Positions 6,988 through 60,316 of a stretch of DNA of 64,000 nucleotides are shown here, piece after piece; the stretch's first letter is position 1; every line of letters starts with the position of its first letter. The DNA lies in contig CACJHA010000001.1 in NCBI GenBank assembly GCA_902593075.1, positions 124 to 64,123 of the forward strand. The letters are read 5' to 3'. Made by a program: the position numbers and the translations under genes. This DNA comes from an uncultured Bacteroidota bacterium. Lineage in GTDB: Bacteria; Bacteroidota; Bacteroidia; Flavobacteriales; Flavobacteriaceae. The notes below the pieces were generated by a model. That model searched no databases, was not told the origin of the DNA, and saw only the letters and a list, made by a program, of their open reading frames with translations.

Positions 6988-7560
6988 ATGAAATTAAAAA
7001 ATATAACTTCCATATTATCCTTTATTCTATTTCTTTCTAACAATGTTTTTGCTCAAGAGATGATTCTTAACAAAATGAATAGTTCAATTAAATGGGCTGG
7101 AAAGGAAATAACTACAAAAACTCACTATGGTTCATTAAAGTTTAAAGAAGGAAAAATTAGCATGAAAGGAGAAAAGATTATTAGCGGTACGTTCATCGTT
7201 GACATGAAGTCTATAAATTGTCAAGATCTTTCAGGAAAATCCAAAAATTATCTTGAGTCACATTTAAAATCCGAAGATTTTTTTTGGGTTGATAATTATC
7301 CTGAAGCTTCTTTAACAATAAAAAACTCTGTATTGATGAATGATGGAAATTATCTTGCAGAGGGTGATATAATAATAAAAGGAATTACTCAGCCTATAAG
7401 TTTTAATATATCAATTCAAAATAATGAAGGAAAAGCTAAATTGATCTTTGATAGAACAAAACATAATGTCACGTATAGATCAGGAAATTTTTTTCAAAAT
7501 CTAGGTGATAAGTTAATATACGATGATATAGAAATAGAAGCTCAATTAACTTTTAATTAA
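6988..7560 (+). CDS. YceI-like periplasmic (polyisoprenoid-binding) protein
   Basis: 190 aa with a signal peptide and the YceI-type blocks SIKWAGKE and HLKSEDFFWVDNYPEASL. Confidence 0.8.
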   Translation: MKLKNITSILSFILFLSNNVFAQEMILNKMNSSIKWAGKEITTKTHYGSLKFKEGKISMKGEKIISGTFIVDMKSINCQDLSGKSKNYLESHLKSEDFFWVDNYPEASLTIKNSVLMNDGNYLAEGDIIIKGITQPISFNISIQNNEGKAKLIFDRTKHNVTYRSGNFFQNLGDKLIYDDIEIEAQLTFN

Positions 7561-7587
7561 AAAGTTAAATTGTATAAATTTTTAATA

Positions 7588-7595
7588 TATATTTG
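7588..7595 (+). promoter_or_regulatory. Candidate -7 promoter box (TATATTTG) for the trp leader/operon
   Basis: TAnnTTTG match located upstream of the Trp-Trp leader ORF and the terminator hairpin. After the hairpin only about 8 nt remain before the trpE start, so the operon promoter must lie upstream of the hairpin. Confidence 0.45.
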
Positions 7596-7599
7596 TCAA

Positions 7600-7647
7600 G
7601 TGAAAATTTTTATTAATAATTATTGGTGGACTTTTATGGATTTATAG
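7600..7647 (+). CDS. Candidate trp operon leader peptide with tandem Trp codons (…NNYWWTFMDL)
   Basis: GTG AAA ATT TTT ATT AAT AAT TAT TGG TGG ACT TTT ATG GAT TTA TAG. An in-frame TTG at 7570 is an alternative start. The start codon is uncertain because the GTG lies only 4 nt after the -7 box. Confidence 0.45.
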   Translation: MKIFINNYWWTFMDL

Positions 7648-7680
7648 ATTCGTGTAAACAGTTCCTATTATTAACATTTG

Positions 7681-7710
7681 GCTTGTCATCACGACAAGCT
7701 TTTTTATTTT
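7681..7710 (+). terminator. Intrinsic terminator / attenuator hairpin immediately upstream of trpE
   Basis: GCTTGTC-ATCAC-GACAAGC (7-bp stem, 5-nt loop) followed by TTTTTTATTTT. It ends 8 nt before the trpE TTG start. Confidence 0.7.
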
Positions 7711-7718
7711 AATACGAT

Positions 7719-9122
7719 TTGGAAAAAATAAAATTTAAAACATATCATAAAAAAATACTTTCGGATAAATTGACTCCCGTTAGTATTTATTTGAAGCTTA
7801 GAGATAAGTTTGCAAATAGTTTACTTCTTGAAAGCAGCGATTATGATGTAAATAATAAAAACTTTTCCTACATATGTTGTGATGCTATTGCATCCATTAG
7901 TGTTAAAGATGGAAAAATAACTTATACATATCCAGGCCAAAAAAAGATTACTACAAAAATTAAAAAAAATGAAAGCCTCCCTAATATTATTAAAAACTTT
8001 TCTAAAAAATTTGATTACAAACACAAAAAATACAACTTCATAACTAATGGTCTTTTTGGATATATTGCACACGAAGCTGTATCACATTTTGAAGATTTAG
8101 ATTTAGACAAAAACAAAGACGATTTAGAAATACCAGAATTATATTATGCTGTTTATAAATACATAATTAGTGTAAGTTTATTTAATCATGAGGCGCACAT
8201 TTTTTGTCATTCAACCAATGATAAAAACGATATAGAAATTATTGATAAACTTTTAAAAAAAGATGTACCGACAAATTATAATTTTAGTAAAAAGGGTGAA
8301 AAAATTTCAAATTTCAGTGATAAAGAATTTACTAATCTTGTAAAAAAAGGAAAAAATCATTGTTTTAGGGGAGATGTTTTCCAGATAGTTTTATCAAGAC
8401 GATTTTCTCAAAGGTTTTATGGAGATGAATTTAATGTTTATAGAGCATTAAGGTCAATTAATCCATCTCCATATCTTTTTTTCTTTGATTACGGGAGCTT
8501 TAAAATTTTTGGTAGTTCTCCAGAGGCACAAATAATAATTGAAAATGGAAGAGCAGAAATACACCCAATAGCAGGAACATTCAAAAGAACAGGAAATGAC
8601 GCAAAAGACAGAGAATTGGCAGAGAAGTTGGAAAGGGACCCTAAGGAAAATAGTGAACATGTTATGCTTGTAGACCTGGCTAGAAATGACTTAAGTAGAA
8701 ACGGAAGTGAGGTTACAGTTGAAAAAAACAGACAAGTACAGTTTTTTTCACATGTAATTCATCTTGTATCAAAGGTGACAGGAAAACTAAATCCTTTAAC
8801 TAATAATTTTCAGGTGGTTGCAGATACATTTCCCGCGGGTACTTTGTCAGGTGCTCCAAAACACATGGCTTTAAAACTTATTGATAAATATGAAAATATT
8901 TCAAGAAATTTTTATGGAGGTGCTTTAGGATTTTTTGATTTTGAAGGAAATTTTAATCATTGCATTATTATTAGATCTTTTTTAAGTAAAAATCAGATTA
9001 TTCATTACCAAGCGGGAGCAGGTGTTGTAGCAAAATCGATTCCAAAAAAAGAGTTGGAAGAAGTATATAATAAATTAGGAGCTTTAGAGAAGGCTCTGGA
9101 AATGGCTGAGAAAATAACATGA
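7719..9122 (+). CDS. trpE: Anthranilate synthase component I
   Basis: 467 aa with TTG start. It has chorismate-binding blocks FQIVLSRRF, INPSPYLFF, RNDLSR, GTLSGAPK and GAGVVA. Confidence 0.92.
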   Translation: MEKIKFKTYHKKILSDKLTPVSIYLKLRDKFANSLLLESSDYDVNNKNFSYICCDAIASISVKDGKITYTYPGQKKITTKIKKNESLPNIIKNFSKKFDYKHKKYNFITNGLFGYIAHEAVSHFEDLDLDKNKDDLEIPELYYAVYKYIISVSLFNHEAHIFCHSTNDKNDIEIIDKLLKKDVPTNYNFSKKGEKISNFSDKEFTNLVKKGKNHCFRGDVFQIVLSRRFSQRFYGDEFNVYRALRSINPSPYLFFFDYGSFKIFGSSPEAQIIIENGRAEIHPIAGTFKRTGNDAKDRELAEKLERDPKENSEHVMLVDLARNDLSRNGSEVTVEKNRQVQFFSHVIHLVSKVTGKLNPLTNNFQVVADTFPAGTLSGAPKHMALKLIDKYENISRNFYGGALGFFDFEGNFNHCIIIRSFLSKNQIIHYQAGAGVVAKSIPKKELEEVYNKLGALEKALEMAEKIT

Positions 9123-9682
9123 AAAAAATATTTGTGGTTGATAATTACGATTCTTTCACTTACAACCTAGTTCATATACTTAGGGACTTAAATTGTACTC
9201 TTGAAGTTAAAAGAAATGATTACTTTAATTTAGACGAAATAGATAGTTATGAATACATCCTTTTGTCACCTGGTCCAGGAATCCCAAGAGAATCGGGTTT
9301 ATTAAATGAAGTAATCAAGAAATATCATAAAACTAAAAGTATTTTGGGAGTGTGTCTTGGGATGCAAGCAATAGGCGAAGTTTTTAGTGGTGAAATTGAG
9401 AATTTAAAAAATGTGTATCATGGAGTTGAAACAAACATTAAAATTATTGATCACGAAAAATTATTTCTAGATATTCCAACAAACATAATGGTAGGAAGAT
9501 ATCATTCATGGGTTGTTAAGCATCCCTTACCAATTTGTCTTAAGGCGACATCATTCGATAAGAAAGGTCACCTAATGTCTTTAAGGCACAAAAACTATAA
9601 AGTATATGGGGTTCAATTTCATCCCGAATCAATATTGACGAAATACGGGAAAAAAATTCTTCAAAATTGGATAAATGATTAG
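9119..9682 (+). CDS. trpG: Anthranilate synthase component II (glutamine amidotransferase)
   Basis: 187 aa: DNYDSFTYNLV, the GVCLGMQ catalytic Cys block and GVQFHPES. Confidence 0.92.
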   Translation: MKKIFVVDNYDSFTYNLVHILRDLNCTLEVKRNDYFNLDEIDSYEYILLSPGPGIPRESGLLNEVIKKYHKTKSILGVCLGMQAIGEVFSGEIENLKNVYHGVETNIKIIDHEKLFLDIPTNIMVGRYHSWVVKHPLPICLKATSFDKKGHLMSLRHKNYKVYGVQFHPESILTKYGKKILQNWIND

Positions 9683-10670
9683 TATGAAAAATATTTTAGA
9701 AAAATTAATCGCAAAAGAATACTTGACTGCATCAGAGGCGGAAAAATCTCTTATTGAAATAACTGAAGGAAAACATGATGATATTCTAGTATCTTCTTTT
9801 TTAACCATTTTTATGATGAGAACAGTATCTATAGACGAGTTAAATGGTTTTAGAAATGCTTTACTTAATTTGTGTGTTAAGATAGATTTATCAGATTACG
9901 ATACAATTGATTTGTGCGGTACAGGAGGAGATGATAAAAACACTTTCAATATTTCAACTTTGTCCTCTTTCATTACTGCTGGTTCTGGAATTAAAGTTGC
10001 AAAACATGGCAACTATGGAATTTCTTCTAATTGTGGCTCTAGTAATGTTTTGGAATTTTTGGGAATTAAATTTTCGGATGATGAAAATTTCATAAAAAAT
10101 TGTATCGATAAAGCTGGAATATGTTTTTTACATGCTCCATTGTTTCATCCAGCTATGAAAAATGTTGCTCCTGTTAGAAAAAATCTAGGGATTAAAACTT
10201 TTTTTAATATTTTGGGACCTCTAGTAAATCCAGTTAATCCTAAAAATCAGCTTACTGGTGTTTATAATCTTGAAACTGCAAGATTATATGGCTATTTTTT
10301 CCAAAAAACAAATAAAAACTATACAATTACTTATTCGTTAGATGGCTACGACGAAATTTCTCTAACTGGTCCAACAAAATTGATTCGAAATTCTGGAGAA
10401 TTTATTTTTGAGCCTCATCATTTTGGATACAAAAATGTAAGAAAAGATTCAATCAGTGGAGGAAATAGTGTAGAAGAATCCGCTTTCATTTTTAAATCCA
10501 TATTAGAAGGAAATGGTTCAGAAGAGCAAAATAATGTTGTTTGTGCTAACGCGGCGATGGCAATATCCACATCTAAAAAATTAAATATTGATGAATCTAT
10601 AAAAATAGCTGAGGATTCATTATATAATAAAAAAGCTCTCAAGTCTTTTGAAAAACTAGTTAAAATTTAA
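9675..10670 (+). CDS. trpD: Anthranilate phosphoribosyltransferase
   Basis: 331 aa: DLCGTGGDDKNTFNIST and KHGNYGISSNCGSSNVLE. Confidence 0.92.
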   Translation: MISMKNILEKLIAKEYLTASEAEKSLIEITEGKHDDILVSSFLTIFMMRTVSIDELNGFRNALLNLCVKIDLSDYDTIDLCGTGGDDKNTFNISTLSSFITAGSGIKVAKHGNYGISSNCGSSNVLEFLGIKFSDDENFIKNCIDKAGICFLHAPLFHPAMKNVAPVRKNLGIKTFFNILGPLVNPVNPKNQLTGVYNLETARLYGYFFQKTNKNYTITYSLDGYDEISLTGPTKLIRNSGEFIFEPHHFGYKNVRKDSISGGNSVEESAFIFKSILEGNGSEEQNNVVCANAAMAISTSKKLNIDESIKIAEDSLYNKKALKSFEKLVKI

Positions 10671-10672
10671 AC

Positions 10673-11464
10673 ATGTCTATTTTAAAAAACATTATAATTG
10701 ACATAAGGAAAGAACTGAAACTTAAAAAAAGTATTATTCCTATATCGGAGTATGAAAAAATGTCTCTTTTTAAAAGAAATACAATTTCAATGAGTAATTC
10801 AATTAAAAAGGATAATTTTGGAATTATAGCCGAATTTAAAAGACGTTCTCCATCAAAAAATGAAATTAACAACAAATTATCTGTTCATGAAGTTTGTAGA
10901 AACTATCAAATTTTTGGTGCAAGCGGATTATCAGTATTAACTAATTTAAAGTATTTTGGTGGGAGTTTGGAAGATTTGGTCTTAGCTAGATCTATATCTT
11001 CTTTGCCGATATTAAGAAAGGATTTTATAATAGATGAATATCAAATTTATGAGTCTAAAGCCTATGGAGCTGATATTATTTTACTTATATCTTCAATACT
11101 TACAAGAGATGAAATAGTCAATTTATCAAAAAAAGCAAAAGACTTGAAATTAGAGGTTCTTTTAGAAGTTCATAATAATGATGAACTAAAAAAAGGGTTA
11201 GTTGAAAACGTCGATATTATCGGAGTAAATAATCGAAACCTTAAATCTTTTAGAACTGATTTAAAAATAAGTGAAAAACTTTTCAATCAAATACCCAATG
11301 AATTTTTAAAAATTTCAGAAAGTGGATTAAATAACGATAATTCTATAAAAAAATTAAAGAAAATTGGTTATCAAGGATTTTTGATTGGAGAAAAATTTAT
11401 GATATCCAGTGATCCAGGTAAAGAGTTAAAAAAAACTTTAAAAAATTTAACTTATGAAAATTAA
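10673..11464 (+). CDS. trpC: Indole-3-glycerol phosphate synthase
   Basis: 263 aa: IAEFKRRSPSK, SVLTN..YFGGS, LRKDFIIDEYQI and GVNNRNLK. Confidence 0.9.
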   Translation: MSILKNIIIDIRKELKLKKSIIPISEYEKMSLFKRNTISMSNSIKKDNFGIIAEFKRRSPSKNEINNKLSVHEVCRNYQIFGASGLSVLTNLKYFGGSLEDLVLARSISSLPILRKDFIIDEYQIYESKAYGADIILLISSILTRDEIVNLSKKAKDLKLEVLLEVHNNDELKKGLVENVDIIGVNNRNLKSFRTDLKISEKLFNQIPNEFLKISESGLNNDNSIKKLKKIGYQGFLIGEKFMISSDPGKELKKTLKNLTYEN

Positions 11465-12077
11465 AATTTGTGGATTAAAATTTGAATCAAATATTTTAGA
11501 TCTTTCTAAATTAGAACCTGATTATATGGGTTTTATTTTTTGGGAAAAATCAAAAAGACTTGTTACAGGTTCCTCTCCTAATCTCTCACAAACCAAAATA
11601 AAAAAAACAGGAGTTTTTGTAAATGCTGATTTTGAAAAAATTAAGGATAAGGTTCATGTCCATAAATTGGAGGCTATTCAGCTTCATGGCCAAGAATCTC
11701 CTGAATTTTGTAAAAAAATAAAGAATTTAGGAGTTGAAATTATTAAAACTTTCAGTATAGATGAAAATTTTAATTTTAATATTCTAGAAAAGTATAAATT
11801 ATGTAGTGACTATTTTTTATTTGACACAAAAGGAAAATATCCTGGGGGAAATGGTATTTCGTTTGACTGGGAAATTTTAAGAAACTATAATTACGAAAAA
11901 AAGTTTTTTCTTAGTGGAGGAATAGGTATTGAAAGTATAAATGCCATAAAAAAAATAAAAAATCTTGACCTACCTTTATTCGGCGTTGATATTAACAGCA
12001 AATTTGAAATAAATCCAGGAAAAAAAAATATAGAATTGATTAAATCTTTTAAAAGAAGTTTAGATAATGAAATATAA
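11454..12077 (+). CDS. trpF: Phosphoribosylanthranilate isomerase
   Basis: 207 aa: KICGL, DYMGFIF, IQLHG and the position within the operon. Confidence 0.88.
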   Translation: MKIKICGLKFESNILDLSKLEPDYMGFIFWEKSKRLVTGSSPNLSQTKIKKTGVFVNADFEKIKDKVHVHKLEAIQLHGQESPEFCKKIKNLGVEIIKTFSIDENFNFNILEKYKLCSDYFLFDTKGKYPGGNGISFDWEILRNYNYEKKFFLSGGIGIESINAIKKIKNLDLPLFGVDINSKFEINPGKKNIELIKSFKRSLDNEI

Positions 12078-13248
12078 AGTTGACAAAAAAGGTTTTTATG
12101 GCAATTTTGGAGGAGCATACATACCTGAAATGTTATATCCAAACATAGATGAATTAAAAAGGAATTATCTTAAAATAATTAATTCACAAAACTTTAGAAA
12201 AGATTTTGAAAGATTATTAACCGAATACGTAGGAAGACCTACTCCTCTATACTTTGCTGAAAGACTTTCTAAAAAATACAATACAAAAATTTACTTAAAA
12301 AGAGAGGACCTCTGTCATACTGGAGCTCACAAAATAAACAATACTATTGGACAAATTTTATTAGCCAAAAACTTAAATAAAAAGAGGATTATTGCTGAAA
12401 CAGGAGCTGGACAACATGGAGTTGCTACAGCAACAGTATGTGCATTAATGGGAATTGATTGTGTAATATACATGGGTGAGGTTGATATTAAACGTCAAGC
12501 ACCAAATGTAGCGCGTATGAAAATGCTTGGTGCAAAAGTTAGAGAAGCAAAGTCTGGAAGCAAAACTCTCAAAGATGCAACTAATGAAGCAATGAGAGAT
12601 TGGATTAATAATCCTATAGATACTCATTATATTATTGGTTCTGTAGTAGGTCCACATCCTTATCCAGATATGGTTACTCGTTTACAAGCTGTAATTAGCA
12701 AGGAAGTCAAAACACAACTTTTAGAAAAGGAAGGTAGAGATTATCCAGACTATCTTATTGCATGTGTTGGTGGTGGAAGTAATGCGGCAGGTTTGTATTA
12801 TCATTATTTGAATAATGAAAAAGTGAAAATAATAGCAGTTGAAGCAGCTGGCAAAGGAATTAATTCTGGTGAAAGCGCAGCAACAATTAAATTGGGTAAA
12901 ATTGGAATTATGCATGGTAGTAAAACATTACTTATGCAAAACGACGACGGACAGATAATTGAACCTTATTCAATTTCAGCAGGTTTAGATTATCCTGGGA
13001 TAGGTCCTCTTCATTCTCATTTGTATGAGACAAAAAGAGCAAAATTTGTTTCGGTTAATGATAGTGAGGCGATGGATTGGGGCCTAGCTTTATCTCAGAT
13101 AGAGGGAATTATACCTGCCATTGAAACTGCCCATGCCTTTTCTGTATTGGATACAACAGCTTTCAAAAAAGATGACATACTTGTTTTTAATTGTTCTGGA
13201 AGAGGTGACAAGGATTTAGAAACCTATATTAAATATTTTAAACTTTAA
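12067..13248 (+). CDS. trpB: Tryptophan synthase beta chain
   Basis: 393 aa: GRPTPLYFA, HTGAHKINN (PLP lysine), ETGAGQHGVA and GGGSNA. Confidence 0.95.
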   Translation: MKYKVDKKGFYGNFGGAYIPEMLYPNIDELKRNYLKIINSQNFRKDFERLLTEYVGRPTPLYFAERLSKKYNTKIYLKREDLCHTGAHKINNTIGQILLAKNLNKKRIIAETGAGQHGVATATVCALMGIDCVIYMGEVDIKRQAPNVARMKMLGAKVREAKSGSKTLKDATNEAMRDWINNPIDTHYIIGSVVGPHPYPDMVTRLQAVISKEVKTQLLEKEGRDYPDYLIACVGGGSNAAGLYYHYLNNEKVKIIAVEAAGKGINSGESAATIKLGKIGIMHGSKTLLMQNDDGQIIEPYSISAGLDYPGIGPLHSHLYETKRAKFVSVNDSEAMDWGLALSQIEGIIPAIETAHAFSVLDTTAFKKDDILVFNCSGRGDKDLETYIKYFKL

Positions 13249-14009
13249 TGAATCGAATACAGAAAAAATTAAAAGAAGAAAAAAAAATACTTTCTGTTTA
13301 TTTTACTGCTGGCTTTCCTAGATTGGATGACACAAAAAAAATTATATCGAAACTAGAAAAACATAACGTTGATTTAATTGAAGTAGGGATTCCATTCTCA
13401 GACCCCCTGGCAGACGGTGAAACTATCCAGAAAAGTTCAAAAAAAGCAATAGAAAATGGTATGACAATTCATACACTTTTTTCTCAATTAAAAGATTTAA
13501 GGAAAAAAGTGAAAATTCCAGTCATACTTATGGGATATTTAAATCCGATCATTCAATTTGGAATTGAAAAATTCTGTATGAAATCTAAAGAAATTGGTAT
13601 AGATGGATTAATTATCCCAGACCTACCTGTTGAGATATTTATAGAAGAATACAAAAATCTCTTTATTAAAAATAATTTATTTAATATTTTTTTAATAACC
13701 CCTCAAACATCTGAAGAAAGAATTAAATTGATAGATAAAAATTCAAAAGGTTTTATTTATATGGTTAGCAGCTCTTCAATAACAGGACCGAAGAAGAATT
13801 TAGAAGATACCAGTTTTAAATATTTTGATAAAATTTCAAATATGAATTTAAATAATCCTTCAATAGTTGGATTTGGTATAAGCAATCGTGAGACCTATGA
13901 AAAAGTCGTAGAAAGGAGTAAAGGTGCAATTATAGGATCAGCCTTTATAAATTTTATTGAACAAAATAGTATAGAGGATATAGGAAAATTTATAAAAAAA
14001 TTTAGATGA
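13248..14009 (+). CDS. trpA: Tryptophan synthase alpha chain
   Basis: 253 aa: IEVGIPFSDPLADGETIQ and GFGIS. Confidence 0.92.
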   Translation: MNRIQKKLKEEKKILSVYFTAGFPRLDDTKKIISKLEKHNVDLIEVGIPFSDPLADGETIQKSSKKAIENGMTIHTLFSQLKDLRKKVKIPVILMGYLNPIIQFGIEKFCMKSKEIGIDGLIIPDLPVEIFIEEYKNLFIKNNLFNIFLITPQTSEERIKLIDKNSKGFIYMVSSSSITGPKKNLEDTSFKYFDKISNMNLNNPSIVGFGISNRETYEKVVERSKGAIIGSAFINFIEQNSIEDIGKFIKKFR

Positions 14010-56267: not shown

Positions 56268-56708
56268 CTATATCCTCTTACCGTTTAGAATAATGTCAAA
56301 ATTTATAGTTGCAACACTGTCTATCATTTTAGAAACGGAACAGTACTTTTGGTAAGATAATTCTGCAGCCCTTTTGGCCTTTTCAGTAGTAATATTTTTT
56401 CCATCTAAGAAAATTTCAATATCAATTGAATCAAATGTTGAAGGAATTTTATTTTTGTCTCTGTTACCTAAAACTTTCATTTTTAATGATGTTGGATTGA
56501 TTTTTTGTTTATTCAAAATATCAATTATATCAATACTACTGCACCCAGCCAAGCCCATAAGTAAAACTTCCATTGGACTGACCCCTCTTACAACTCCCGT
56601 TTTTTTTGATCTATTGTCTAAAAAAACCCTGTGTCCTTGAGTGTTTTTTGCTTCAAATAGATAATCGCTGTTTACTCTTTCTAATGTTATTTCCATTTTC
56701 AGATTCAA
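56268..56708 (-). CDS. OsmC/Ohr-family protein
   Basis: 146 aa with the OsmC fold blocks SPMEVLLMGLAGCSSIDI and YCSVSKM. The ATG at 56696 is an alternative start. Confidence 0.8.
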   Translation of the reverse strand: MNLKMEITLERVNSDYLFEAKNTQGHRVFLDNRSKKTGVVRGVSPMEVLLMGLAGCSSIDIIDILNKQKINPTSLKMKVLGNRDKNKIPSTFDSIDIEIFLDGKNITTEKAKRAAELSYQKYCSVSKMIDSVATINFDIILNGKRI

Positions 56709-57663
56709 ATAATATTTTACTTAAAATTTTCGACATTTTTTTATTTTCTATCAAAAATCCGTCATGCCCATGAACAGATTGTATAATATGATGATATACA
56801 TTTTGCTTAACTGACTTGATTAAGTTATAGGTATAAATATCTCTTTCAAGTGTGAAATAATAATCACTATCAATACTTACAATATGTATATTAGATTCAA
56901 TATTAGATAATACATCCTTCGGGTCTTTTTCGTCTCCAGTAATATCAACTGTTGACAATAAGTGATTCATCGCGTTGTAGGCCTCAAGGTTAAATCTTTT
57001 TAGAATACTTTCACCATGAAATGAAAGCCACTCTTCAACCAAAGAGGTGCCTTTTTCGTTTTTTTTATTAGAAAACCTATTGTTTAAAGAGATTGGAGTT
57101 CTGTAACTTAACATGGCATGTATTCTGGCATCTTCAAGAGGATTTTTTGAGTTTTTTAAAATTCTTTTTTGTAAATACGTGTTAGCTAAAATCCAATCAG
57201 ATATTTGCCAATCACAAGCTACAGGAATAATGTTTTCGGCAAATTTATTTTTTAGTGAGGCCATTTCCCATGTAATACCCCCTCCAATAGATCCACCAAC
57301 TATAGCAAATAAACTAGAAACACCAATTTTTTCAAGCCCCAAATAAAACATCTTGGCAATATCCTTACAGCTCAATTCCATATAATTTTCAATTGTTGGA
57401 TGATAATATCCGTTGCCAGGTATGTCAAAGGCAATAACAGTGAAAAATTTCAAATCAATAGCTTTGTCAGCCCCAACAATTTCTGACCACCAACCTTTGT
57501 CTCCAGTTAAACTTGAATTACCCGTTAAGGAATGATTAACAAGTATAATTGGTGAATCTCCGATTTCTTGACCATATAGTTGGTAGGATAGATAAACTTT
57601 ATCAAACATAAAGCCAGTATTTGACTTAAAATTTTTTATAGTAATGCTATGCAATTTTGGCAT
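56653..57663 (-). CDS. metX: Homoserine O-acetyltransferase
   Basis: 336-aa alpha/beta hydrolase: ILVNHSLTGNS, the nucleophile elbow GGSIGG and HGHDGFL. Confidence 0.85.
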   Translation of the reverse strand: MPKLHSITIKNFKSNTGFMFDKVYLSYQLYGQEIGDSPIILVNHSLTGNSSLTGDKGWWSEIVGADKAIDLKFFTVIAFDIPGNGYYHPTIENYMELSCKDIAKMFYLGLEKIGVSSLFAIVGGSIGGGITWEMASLKNKFAENIIPVACDWQISDWILANTYLQKRILKNSKNPLEDARIHAMLSYRTPISLNNRFSNKKNEKGTSLVEEWLSFHGESILKRFNLEAYNAMNHLLSTVDITGDEKDPKDVLSNIESNIHIVSIDSDYYFTLERDIYTYNLIKSVKQNVYHHIIQSVHGHDGFLIENKKMSKILSKILFESENGNNIRKSKQRLSI

Positions 57664-57671
57664 ATTTAATA

Positions 57672-58943
57672 TTAAATTTTTGCAAATGATTGTTTTAAAT
57701 CTTCTTTTAAATCATCCAAGTTTTCAATTCCAACAGATATTCTTACTAAATCAGGAGTAACGCCAGTGCTTTTTTGTTCATCAATATTTAATTGTGAATG
57801 CGTTGTGCTTGAAGGATGAATTATCAAAGATTTGGTGTCCCCAATATTAGCTAGTAGTGCAAATATTTTCGTGCTCTCAGCAACTTTTTTTGCACCTTCA
57901 AAACCTTTTTTTAGACCAAATGTAACAATGCCACTTGAACCCTTTTTAAGATATTTTTTAGCTAATTGATTATATTTTGAAGAATTAAGTCCAGGATAGT
58001 TTACCCAACTTACTTCACTCTGCTCTTCTAACCATTTTGCAATATTTAAAGCATTTTCAGAATGCTTTTGCATTCTAACTTCTAAAGTTTCTAAACCTTG
58101 AATTACTTGAAAACTATTTAGAGGGCTTGGTGCACTACCTAAATCTCTTAACCCTTCAACCCTTGTTTTAGCAATGAATGCTAAAGGGCCGAGTGCTTCA
58201 TGATATTTTAGACCGTGATAAGAAGGTGATGGTTCAGTAAATTCAGGGAACTTCCCACTGGAATAATCAAAGGTTCCGGCATCAATGATTATTCCACCCA
58301 AGGTGGTTCCATTTCCTGTTATATATTTAGTGAGAGAGTGGATAACTATGTTGGCTCCGTGTTCTATAGGATTTAGAAGTGCAGGAGAAGCTATAGTATT
58401 ATCAACTATAAAGGGGACTTTTGCATCTTTTGCATGCTTACTAATTCCTTCCAAATCAATAACATCTAGCTTTGGATTTCCTAAGGACTCAGCAAAAAAC
58501 ACTTTAGTGTTTGGCTTAAGAGCATCTTTAAAATTATCAACATTATCTGGATCAACAAAAGTTGTAGTTATGCCAAATCTAGGTAAAGTATTGTTAAGCA
58601 TATTGTATGTCCCGCCATATAGACTATTTGATGCAATAATATGGTCACCTGATTTTAATAATGTCATAAATGTTGTTGCAATCGCTGAAGTTCCAGAAGC
58701 AGTAGCTACTGCAGCAACACCTCCTTCTACAGCTGCCAATCTTTGTTCTAAAACATCATTAGTTGGGTTATTAAGTCTAGTATAAATGTAACCTGACTCG
58801 GATAGCGAAAATAAATTTGCCGCATGCTCAGAGTCATTAAAAACATACGAAGTTGATTGATAAATTGGTACGGCTCTGGTGCCTTGTGTTTGTTTCACAT
58901 CATGCCCTGCATGAAGTGCCTTAGTTGCTAATTTTAAACTCAT
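57672..58943 (-). CDS. metY: O-acetylhomoserine aminocarboxypropyltransferase (sulfhydrylase)
   Basis: 423 aa: YTRLNNPT, the PLP-Lys block HSLTKYI.GNG and SLIIHPSSTTH. Confidence 0.92.
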   Translation of the reverse strand: MSLKLATKALHAGHDVKQTQGTRAVPIYQSTSYVFNDSEHAANLFSLSESGYIYTRLNNPTNDVLEQRLAAVEGGVAAVATASGTSAIATTFMTLLKSGDHIIASNSLYGGTYNMLNNTLPRFGITTTFVDPDNVDNFKDALKPNTKVFFAESLGNPKLDVIDLEGISKHAKDAKVPFIVDNTIASPALLNPIEHGANIVIHSLTKYITGNGTTLGGIIIDAGTFDYSSGKFPEFTEPSPSYHGLKYHEALGPLAFIAKTRVEGLRDLGSAPSPLNSFQVIQGLETLEVRMQKHSENALNIAKWLEEQSEVSWVNYPGLNSSKYNQLAKKYLKKGSSGIVTFGLKKGFEGAKKVAESTKIFALLANIGDTKSLIIHPSSTTHSQLNIDEQKSTGVTPDLVRISVGIENLDDLKEDLKQSFAKI

Positions 58944-58954
58944 TTTTGAAATAT

Positions 58955-60211
58955 TTATTTATTTAAGTAATCATTTATTTTTTTTACATAATTTATGTTC
59001 TCCCAAGTAAATAAATCCACTTTGTGATTTACTTCTTGATTATTTTTATTTAGAAAATTTTTATTAATTTTTTTATGTTCTCTTCCCATATGACCATAAG
59101 ATGAGGTTTCAAAGTAGATAGGGTTTCTAAGTGATAGATTTTTTTCAATTGAGTAAGGTCTCAAATCAAAAATTTTATAAATCATCTCAGTAATTTCTGA
59201 ATTTGTTAGTTTAACCTTCGAAGTTCCAAAAGTATTTACATTAATTGATGTGGGTTCTGCTATTCCGATTGCGTAGCTCAATTGTACTAGTATCTTGCTT
59301 GCGATTCCTGAAGCAACTAAATTCTTAGCTATATGCCTAGAGGCATAAGCTGCACTTCTATCAACTTTGCTGGGGTCTTTACCACTAAAAGCACCTCCTC
59401 CGTGGGCTCCCCATCCTCCATATGTATCGACAATTATTTTCCTTCCCGTAAGACCAGTATCTCCATGAGGTCCACCTATAACAAACTTGCCAGTTGGATT
59501 AATAATAATTTTAGTGTTTTTATTATAAAGAGATCTAATATTTTGATGCTCGTTATCAAATACACGAGGTAATAAAATTTCGACAATATCTTTTTTGATT
59601 TTGTCAACCATTTTTTTGTCATCTTTTTCGAAAGGATCATGTTGTGTTGAAACTAGTATTGTATCAATTGAAACTGGATTTCCGTTTTTATCATATTCTA
59701 CTGTCACTTGAGATTTTGAATCTGGACGTAAATATCCAATTTGATTTCCTTGTCTTCTTAAAATAGACAATTCCTTTAGTATTTTGTGAGATAAATCTAA
59801 AGTTAAAGGAATCAAGTTTTCAGTTTCTTCCGTTGCATAACCAAACATAATTCCTTGGTCACCAGCGCCTTGGTTTTCCTTCACACTTTTTTCAACACCT
59901 CTGTTAATATCTTCTGACTGAGAATGAATTAAAGAAGACACTTCACATTCATTTGCGCTAAATTTAATTTTTGAATCCGTATATCCAATCTTTTCAATTG
60001 TTTCTCTTACAATTTTCTCTACGTTTATCTGAGCATTTGATTTTACTTCACCTGCGACTATTACTTTATTAGTTGTAACGAGTGTTTCACAGGCTACTTT
60101 ACTCTCGGAATCAAAAGCTAAATAATTGTCAAGGATTGCGTCACTAATTTGATCAGATACTTTATCAGGGTGGCCCTCGCTAACTGATTCAGAAGTAAAA
60201 AATGTATTCAT
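58955..60211 (-). CDS. metK: S-adenosylmethionine synthetase
   Basis: 418 aa: FTSESVSEGHPDK, GAGDQGIMFGYA, GGPHGDTGLTGRKIIVDTYGG and GGGAFSGKDPSKVDRS. Confidence 0.96.
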   Translation of the reverse strand: MNTFFTSESVSEGHPDKVSDQISDAILDNYLAFDSESKVACETLVTTNKVIVAGEVKSNAQINVEKIVRETIEKIGYTDSKIKFSANECEVSSLIHSQSEDINRGVEKSVKENQGAGDQGIMFGYATEETENLIPLTLDLSHKILKELSILRRQGNQIGYLRPDSKSQVTVEYDKNGNPVSIDTILVSTQHDPFEKDDKKMVDKIKKDIVEILLPRVFDNEHQNIRSLYNKNTKIIINPTGKFVIGGPHGDTGLTGRKIIVDTYGGWGAHGGGAFSGKDPSKVDRSAAYASRHIAKNLVASGIASKILVQLSYAIGIAEPTSINVNTFGTSKVKLTNSEITEMIYKIFDLRPYSIEKNLSLRNPIYFETSSYGHMGREHKKINKNFLNKNNQEVNHKVDLFTWENINYVKKINDYLNK

Positions 60212-60316
60212 TTAAATTGCTTTCAGGAAGGATTTGAAGATTACTTTTGAAAGCAATTCTGCTTTAGCATTTTTTTTTCGAGGTTTGCAATCAGACAAAT
60301 CCTTCCTCGTTATTAT
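60212..60316 (-). promoter_or_regulatory. Structured 5' leader of the metK-metY-metX-osmC-metH-metF operon; candidate SAM-responsive element (class unresolved)
   Basis: The minus-strand RNA contains GGAAGGAUUUG (60306-60296), complementary to CAAAUCCUUCC (60236-60226). It also contains AUUGCUUUCA (60257-60248), complementary to UGAAAGCAAU (60225-60216), which ends 4 nt before the AUG. A competing local hairpin AAAGCA-GAAU-UGCUUU is possible. Confidence 0.5.

Follow-up and report, generated by a model that had tools for sequence, protein, structure and literature searches.

A probable tryptophan attenuator upstream of trpEGDCFBA in an uncultured Flavobacteriaceae bacterium, a diverged member of the Bacteroid-trp leader family

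How the tryptophan operon of an uncultured member of the Flavobacteriaceae is controlled is the question raised by a short intergenic region in the 64,000-nt stretch of DNA analysed here (assembly GCA_902593075.1, contig CACJHA010000001.1; hereafter the window), which has a G+C content of about 30%. The regulated operon, trpEGDCFBA, spans 7719-14009 on the + strand, and a gap of 158 nt separates it from the end, at 7560, of a yceI-like gene. An earlier note, made from the letters alone, had described in this gap a -7 promoter box, a short ORF that starts with GTG and carries two adjacent TGG codons, and a terminator hairpin ending 8 nt before trpE, and had proposed that together they form an attenuator of the trpL type. 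These elements were all read as described, and all elements of the proposed architecture are present and are conserved with trpE across the Flavobacteriaceae. The genes of the locus are as follows.

6988-7560: yceI-like gene with a YceI domain (Pfam), upstream neighbour of trpE
7719-9122, + strand: trpE, TTG start (ORF and Pfam TrpE)
9119-9682, + strand: trpG (ORF and Pfam)
9675-10670, + strand: trpD (ORF and Pfam)
10673-11464, + strand: trpC (ORF and Pfam)
11454-12077, + strand: trpF (ORF and Pfam)
12067-13248, + strand: trpB (ORF and Pfam)
13248-14009, + strand: trpA (ORF and Pfam)

Neighbouring genes of the trp operon abut or overlap. TrpE, TrpD, TrpC and TrpA contain no Trp residue at all, and TrpG, TrpF and TrpB contain two each; the sparing of its own cognate amino acid by the proteins of a pathway is a familiar pattern. 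Elsewhere in the window, a SAM-II riboswitch of the long-loop type, which is the type known from Bacteroidota, was detected upstream of metK (60254-60314, - strand, 74 bits), and it is followed on the same strand by metK (58955-60211), a gene for a PLP enzyme of Cys/Met metabolism (57672-58943) and an alpha/beta hydrolase gene (56653-57663). This arrangement of riboswitch and metK was likewise reported in F. psychrophilum (PMC9723704, supplement). A cluster of four tRNA genes (Thr-GGT, Gly-TCC, Tyr-GTA and Thr-TGT) is found at 652-1261 on the - strand. The leader upstream of trpE is composed of the following parts.

7588-7595, + strand: -7 promoter box TATATTTG, of the Bacteroidota sigma-A type (TAnnTTTG)
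7600, + strand: predicted transcription start site (TSS) at G7600, the first base of GTG, placed by the published box position and the 4-nt gap
7600-7647, + strand: leader ORF, GTG at 7600 to TAG at 7645-7647, 15 codons and stop, encoding (V/M)KIFINNYWWTFMDL
7624-7629, + strand: tandem UGG UGG, the putative sensing site, in invariant columns of the 76 aligned leaders
7613-7674, + strand: 1:2 hairpin (anti-antiterminator), helices 7613-7620/7667-7674, 7625-7632/7660-7666 and 7635-7642/7647-7654, in both the MFE and the centroid fold
7650-7654, + strand: UCGUG box, core of region 2, near-invariant columns 63-67 of alignment A1, UCGUGA in most relatives
7650-7694, + strand: candidate antiterminator, helices 7650-7654/7690-7694, 7658-7661/7683-7686 and 7664-7665/7680-7681
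7680-7700, + strand: intrinsic terminator GGCTTGTC-ATCAC-GACAAGCT, stem 7680-7687/7693-7700, loop AUCAC 7688-7692, then the U-tract TTTTTTATTT (7701-7710)

To place the leader among its relatives, the TrpE sequence was used to scan a genome collection, which gave 80 Flavobacteriaceae loci; two of them lacked upstream DNA, leaving 78 usable loci. The nearest relatives are MAGs and SAGs of uncultured marine Flavobacteriaceae, with 93-96% TrpE identity; for the others, among them Arcticimaribacter, Leeuwenhoekiella, Dokdonia, Aequorivita, Christiangramia, Maribacter and Flavobacterium, the identity is 60-69%. At 76 of the 78 loci trpE is preceded by the same parts in the same order: a -7 box, a start codon, an ORF with two or three tandem Trp codons (UGGUGG or UGGUGGUGG), UCGUG(A), a terminator hairpin of the form GGCUUGUC-(A)UCAC-GACAAGCC, and a U-tract. 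The conservation of tandem Trp codons and hairpin, on which the earlier note had made its proposal depend, is therefore found across the family. The start codon of trpE itself is TTG in the window and in its three closest relatives (L001-L003, at about 2501), and ATG at the same position in all remoter ones.

Trp makes up 0.52% of the residues of 13 proteins encoded in the window, and at this frequency the chance of a WW pair within a 15-codon ORF is about 4e-4. The earlier remark that the gap holds no other TGG is right for in-frame codons, and the triplet also occurs out of frame at 7637 and at 7679. The three closest relatives have an ATG orthologous to the GTG at 7600; ATG is the start codon among the relatives, and GTG was found only in the window and in one further locus (L023). 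In 69 of 71 loci, reading from the first ATG past the -7 box leads in frame and without a stop through UGGUGG; in the two exceptions this ATG abuts the box. Throughout the 76 leaders the codons flanking the Trp codons vary while the Trp codons are invariant. The leader stop codon is a UGA inside the UCGUGA box in 40 of the 76 leaders, lies 3-14 nt upstream of the box in 33, and is found 5-8 nt beyond the box start in three, so that a terminating ribosome, with a stop at or just before the box in 73 of the 76, would cover the box in all but three. From these patterns we infer that the leader ORF is translated. An in-frame TTG at 7570, named earlier as an alternative start, was rejected, since it overlaps the promoter and its counterpart in L001, out of frame, runs directly into TAA. 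The leader ORF of Leeuwenhoekiella aestuarii (L046, 2250-2396) has 48 codons because about 90 extra bases lie between promoter and Trp codons, and this locus was excluded from the alignments.

Leaders of this type have been described before. Weinberg et al. (2010; PMC2864571) introduced Bacteroid-trp as a presumed peptide leader that has 'a loosely conserved hairpin', in a description that gives neither a consensus diagram nor an antiterminator (PMC2864571, supplement), and Rfam represents it by RF01692 ('Bacteroidete tryptophan peptide leader RNA'), whose gathering score is 49 bits. In F. psychrophilum, Guerin et al. mapped the Rfam trp leader upstream of trpE-pabA-trpDCFBA; its read-through was conditional, and expression peaked in minimal medium (PMC9723704, supplement). 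RF01692 was absent from the scan of the whole window at gathering threshold, and it was the only relevant Rfam match in 7400-7900, with 21.1 bits and E = 9 over 501 nt. Trp_leader (RF00513), the proteobacterial model that the earlier note had suggested, had no match at E <= 10 in 7400-7900, whereas RF01692, though below threshold, aligns and matches up the start codon, UGGUGG, UCGUG and GGCUUGUC of the window. The 1:2 hairpin of the window is analogous to the hairpin of RF01692, though several non-standard pairs are marked in the cmscan alignment and sub-groups have the apical helix in different registers. The scores fall gradually from 77 to 21 bits: ten three-Trp leaders, including those of Flavobacterium, Aequorivita, Leeuwenhoekiella, Arenibacter and Galbibacter, score 52-77 bits, L060 scores 47, and two-Trp leaders score 46, 41, 38, 34 and 32 bits, all below 49. 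A covariance model (R1) was made with 71 relatives, the threshold-passing ones among them, and with the window and three near-identical relatives excluded; it recognised 7596-7710 of the window with 56.8 bits (E ~2e-11). Its next match, with 24.8 bits, lies antisense in trpG (9400-9513, - strand); this contains UUCGUGA yet neither Trp codons nor a terminator, and was dismissed as a chance match.

Based on these alignments and scores, the window element is homologous to accepted members of RF01692, though below that model's threshold. Like them it is found in Bacteroidota 5' of trp biosynthesis genes (trpE or trpB), ending 8 nt before trpE. Its short ORF has at least two UGG codons that are conserved, as in the description of the family (Weinberg 2010, Additional file 1), and it shares the terminator arm GGCUUGUC at the 3' end of the model. 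It differs from the threshold members in having two Trp codons instead of three, a GTG start and 21.1 bits against 49, and from the model in the register of the apical 1:2 helix and in a box that reads UCGUGU in place of UCGUGA. By sequence, then, it is a diverged, sub-threshold member of the leader family described in 2010 and is not new in kind. What is added here is a concrete candidate for the antiterminator, a fixed spacing rule, a predicted leaderless start and the observation that Rfam misses the two-Trp group.

In RNA form the terminator reads GGCUUGUC-AUCAC-GACAAGCU; the terminator scan reported 8 pairs, 4 of them G-C, and a 5-nt loop, its energy is -11.0 kcal/mol, and 8 nt lie between the end of the U-tract and the TTG of trpE (7719). 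The scan yielded 2 sites in 1.2 kb, against 0.4 +/- 0.7 in shuffled sequences. Among the 76 leaders 96% of the cells pair, and six pairs show changes on both sides. The stem GGCUUGUC/GACAAGCC is almost invariant (A1 columns 116-137) across genera whose TrpE proteins are only about 60% identical. In most of L004-L080 the stem is preceded by an A-tract, a mirror image of the U-tract (AAAAGGC...GCCUUUU), which lengthens the hairpin and gives it a bidirectional look; the clade of the window has UUU at this place. Dokdonia-type leaders (L028 417-444, L034 2458-2483 and L050) have a longer, G+C-rich stem, GCAGCCUGUC...GACAGGCUGC, an interrupted U-tract, UUGCAUUUU, and a compensating change of box and loop to UCGUAAG and UUAC.

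A second structure, the 1:2 hairpin, appears upstream of the terminator in the MFE fold, and it contains exactly the pairings of leader codons 5-7 and of GGACU that had been proposed by eye. UUAAUAAU (7613-7620) pairs with AUUAUUAA (7667-7674), and GG.GGACU (7625-7632) pairs with AGUUCCU (7660-7666); the AGUUCC within the latter, given earlier as 7661-7666, actually occupies 7660-7665. The z-score of the fold is only -2.2. When no ribosome is present, the helix 7635-7642/7647-7654 buries the UCGUG box in the predicted fold. In folds of the leader alone, at least three of the five box bases have their pairing partners within the footprint of a ribosome stalled at UGG in all 76 leaders, and at least four in 69. 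For the leaders with three Trp codons, 84% of the cells pair in the 1:2 helix CUUACG:CGUGAG, which covaries from C-G to U-A (21 vs 12 sequences). A 1:2 helix in fixed register was also tried for the two-Trp group and was no better than shuffles, because the partner strand shifts between clades; the hairpin of this group was judged by folding each sequence instead. RNAalifold on the full alignment returned the terminator alone, which indicates that the leader hairpin is not alignable by MAFFT.

No antiterminator had been found by eye, and a good candidate is now given by the UCGUG box and the terminator loop. The complement of the box, CACGA at 7690-7694, consists of the last three bases of the loop and the first two of the 3' arm. 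In all 76 leaders the distance from the last UGG to the box start is 17-21 nt, and the six core pairs between box and loop form in about 97% of the cells. A core G-C pair is replaced by A-U in five Dokdonia-type sequences (box UCGUAAG, loop UUAC) and by G-U in two, and the loop variants UCGC and UUAC still pair through wobbles; this covariation of the core helix probably goes back to a single evolutionary event. When the alignment was cut after the third base of the 3' arm, RNAalifold returned exactly the box:loop helix and nothing else. The leaders were also folded one by one over the nascent segment that a stalled ribosome would leave exposed, beginning 15 nt beyond the final UGG and ending with base three of the 3' arm, and 74 of the 76 formed the same helix. 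When the window sequence was folded step by step, the antiterminator is the MFE structure of the nascent RNA up to 7694-7698, with -7.6 kcal/mol, and the terminator wins once the full 3' arm is out (-11.0 vs -7.6 kcal/mol). 

In the window itself the antiterminator core has 5 bp and contributes -3.0 kcal/mol alone, reaching -7.6 kcal/mol with the flanking helices ACAG 7658-7661/UUGU 7683-7686 and CC 7664-7665/GG 7680-7681. The sixth base of the box is U, not A, in the window, and the A-U pair of 69 of the 76 leaders is lost. Compared with dinucleotide shuffles the window antiterminator is marginal, as 11% of them fold as well and 2.4% match both energy and pairing. Its extension onto the 5' arm is part of the MFE structure of the window, yet is not clearly above shuffles there. 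Family-wide, the antiterminator extended onto the 5' arm has -12.1 kcal/mol and 5.1 paired bases, against -9.9 kcal/mol and 4.6 in the shuffles, a margin scarcely above chance; the flanking pairs may at most help the antiterminator. According to these models, the pairing of the UCGUG(A) box with the terminator loop is probably the antiterminator. Such pairing would explain the conservation, from genus to genus, of a terminator loop, a part that can normally vary freely; it accounts for the loop and the top of the stem, and not for the conservation of the remaining stem.

Taken together, a leader ORF with tandem Trp codons is followed by an intrinsic terminator before trpE, and the ribosome-masked and stepwise folds and the pair counts give mutually exclusive structures among which the position of the ribosome would select. 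The leader element is real and probably functional, and very likely it is a ribosome-mediated, Trp-sensing transcription attenuator of trpEGDCFBA that belongs to the Flavobacteriaceae branch of the Bacteroid-trp family. The following mechanism is proposed. Transcription would begin from the -7 box at 7588-7595, probably at G7600, which would place the 15-codon ORF at the 5' end of the RNA. When Trp is plentiful, the ribosome would reach the UAG at 7645-7647 and cover the UCGUG box (7650-7654), the terminator (7680-7700) with its U-tract would fold, and transcription would stop 8 nt before trpE. With no ribosome on the leader, the 1:2 hairpin would hold the box through 7635-7642/7647-7654 and the pairing of the Trp codons with 7660-7666, and the terminator would also form. 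When charged tRNA-Trp is scarce, the ribosome would stall with a UGG of 7624-7629 in its A site, masking the 5' strand of the hairpin and leaving the box free. The freed box would pair with CACGA (7690-7694), possibly helped by ACAG/UUGU and CC/GG on the 5' arm, and this pairing would block the terminator and let RNA polymerase read into trpE. Read-through would in this way depend on Trp, a prediction to which the conditional read-through in F. psychrophilum lends indirect support.

The promoter bears on where translation of the leader could start. In Bacteroidota the promoter is of the -33/-7 type, and matches from a sigma-70 promoter scan were discarded for this reason. TAHHTTTG has a single match on the + strand within 7401-7800, the box at 7588-7595, and the -33 element is non-canonical (TTG 7570-7572, spacer 15 nt). 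No second -7 box was found in 7596-7800 (+ strand). It was reported that the TAnnTTTG box of F. johnsoniae and F. psychrophilum occupies -12 to -5, 4 or 5 nt before the TSS, and that about 5% of the mRNAs in these species are leaderless and 87% have leaders of more than 10 nt (PMC6847099, PMC9723704). In the window 4 nt separate the box from the start codon; with the final G of the box (7595) at -5, +1 falls at 7600. The leader ORF is thus predicted to be leaderless, with its start codon at the 5' end of the RNA. That the GTG lies very close to the putative TSS had been noted earlier as an unsettled detail; the closeness is real, is common to most relatives, and is best read as a leaderless ORF. 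Among 71 relatives, box and start codon are 4 nt apart in 15, 5 nt apart in 24 and 6 nt apart in three (4-6 nt in 42 of the 71), and in the group of the window (L001-L030), whose leaders nearly all have two Trp codons, the gap is 4-6 nt in 28 of 29. The Flavobacterium species differ, with 16-18 nt between box and ATG against a predicted 5' UTR of 0 nt in the window.

Leaderless GUG starts are poor in E. coli. The terminator scan found no terminator between yceI and the leader, so a leadered transcript could also be supplied by read-through from yceI. In a limited literature search, no description of a leaderless leader ORF in Bacteroidota was found. In other phyla, leaderless leader peptides are known from the trpEGD leader of Deinococcus deserti, with the TSS at -1 (PMC4007540), from ilvB of Corynebacterium diphtheriae (PMC5784534) and from poly-Cys ORFs of mycobacteria (bioRxiv 10.1101/834739). 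As in those cases, the attenuator ORF of the window would begin at the 5' transcript end or 1 nt away from it; it is unrelated to them in sequence, and its predicted leaderlessness follows from promoter geometry where theirs follows from mapped TSSs. We give even odds to the further reading that the two-Trp sub-family of low-GC uncultured marine Flavobacteriaceae is a minimal, truly leaderless attenuator, in which transcription starts at the start codon (5'-GUG in the window), the whole sensor fits in 111 nt and the conserved antiterminator core pairs with the loop of the terminator instead of its 5' arm.

Other readings of the same elements have to be weighed. The hairpin could be a mere terminator of yceI, with the trp genes starting independently and the WW ORF a coincidence. 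In favour of this, the stretch from the yceI stop (7560) to the hairpin holds no other terminator, and yceI is upstream in the closest relatives too. However, the -7 box is situated between yceI and the ORF, no further -7 box follows in 7596-7800, and just 8 nt separate the U-tract from the trpE start. The upstream gene moreover varies by clade, and leader and hairpin precede trpE beside unrelated genes, some with terminators of their own, which assigns the element to trpE and not to yceI; with UGGUGG invariant at 76 loci, this explanation is extremely improbable.

It might also be supposed that the conserved RNA works without translation of the ORF, for example through a TRAP-like protein or a riboswitch-type small ligand that binds the box and the terminator hairpin and thereby decides termination. 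Two features would suit a bound factor: the window has a weak base-paired antiterminator, and terminator stem, loop and box are conserved in sequence beyond the needs of a plain hairpin. The ORF itself speaks for translation: in 69 of 71 loci an open start codon in the right frame follows the -7 box, the Trp codons do not vary, UGG and the UCGUG box stand a fixed 17-21 nt apart, and 73 of 76 leaders have their stop codon at or just before that box. A TRAP-type site would show 9-11 spaced (G/U)AG repeats, and 7596-7718 contains a single such triplet. No T-box or riboswitch matched at E <= 10 in 7400-7900; for the T-box, the whole-window scan gave no covariance-model match either. We regard this alternative as very unlikely. 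The terminated leader RNA (about 105 nt) could, in addition, act in trans as a small RNA, for which rnTrpL of Sinorhizobium offers a precedent (PMC6614838). The unusual conservation of the terminator across genera would fit, since a trans role could explain the stem and not only the loop. Against this, all seven trp genes are in one operon, which makes control in trans unnecessary, and the conservation of the loop is already covered by its pairing with the box. Such an additional role is considered unlikely.

As a ribosome-mediated attenuator, the leader invites comparison with trpL of E. coli, for which the Yanofsky model describes a leader of 14-15 codons with tandem Trp codons and the exclusive structures 1:2, 2:3 and 3:4. 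In both, a ribosome at the stop codon would mask region 2, and the terminator is more stable than the antiterminator; the choice would therefore be kinetic, in the order that the E. coli model assumes. In contrast to trpL, the window leader has no sequence homology to RF00513 and no Shine-Dalgarno sequence, the core of region 3 is the terminator loop with the first 2-3 bases of the 3' arm in place of the 5' arm, and the antiterminator core of the family has only 5-8 bp.

For the biology of these bacteria, the most direct consequence is that the Rfam threshold misses the leader across a whole group of streamlined marine Flavobacteriaceae, so that automated annotation leaves their trp operons looking unregulated; the alignment and model from 71 relatives would recover the leaders that Rfam misses. 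The box, its spacing of 17-21 nt and its pairing with the loop constitute a candidate switch testable by mutation, which goes beyond the published 'a loosely conserved hairpin'. Shine-Dalgarno sequences are lacking from the Bacteroidota, and as a modest curiosity the predicted leaderless start touches the coupling of translation and transcription in such a phylum, and if the reading of the two-Trp sub-family is true, this would be the first leaderless ribosome-mediated attenuator in Bacteroidota, and the conservation of a terminator loop across genera would be explained.
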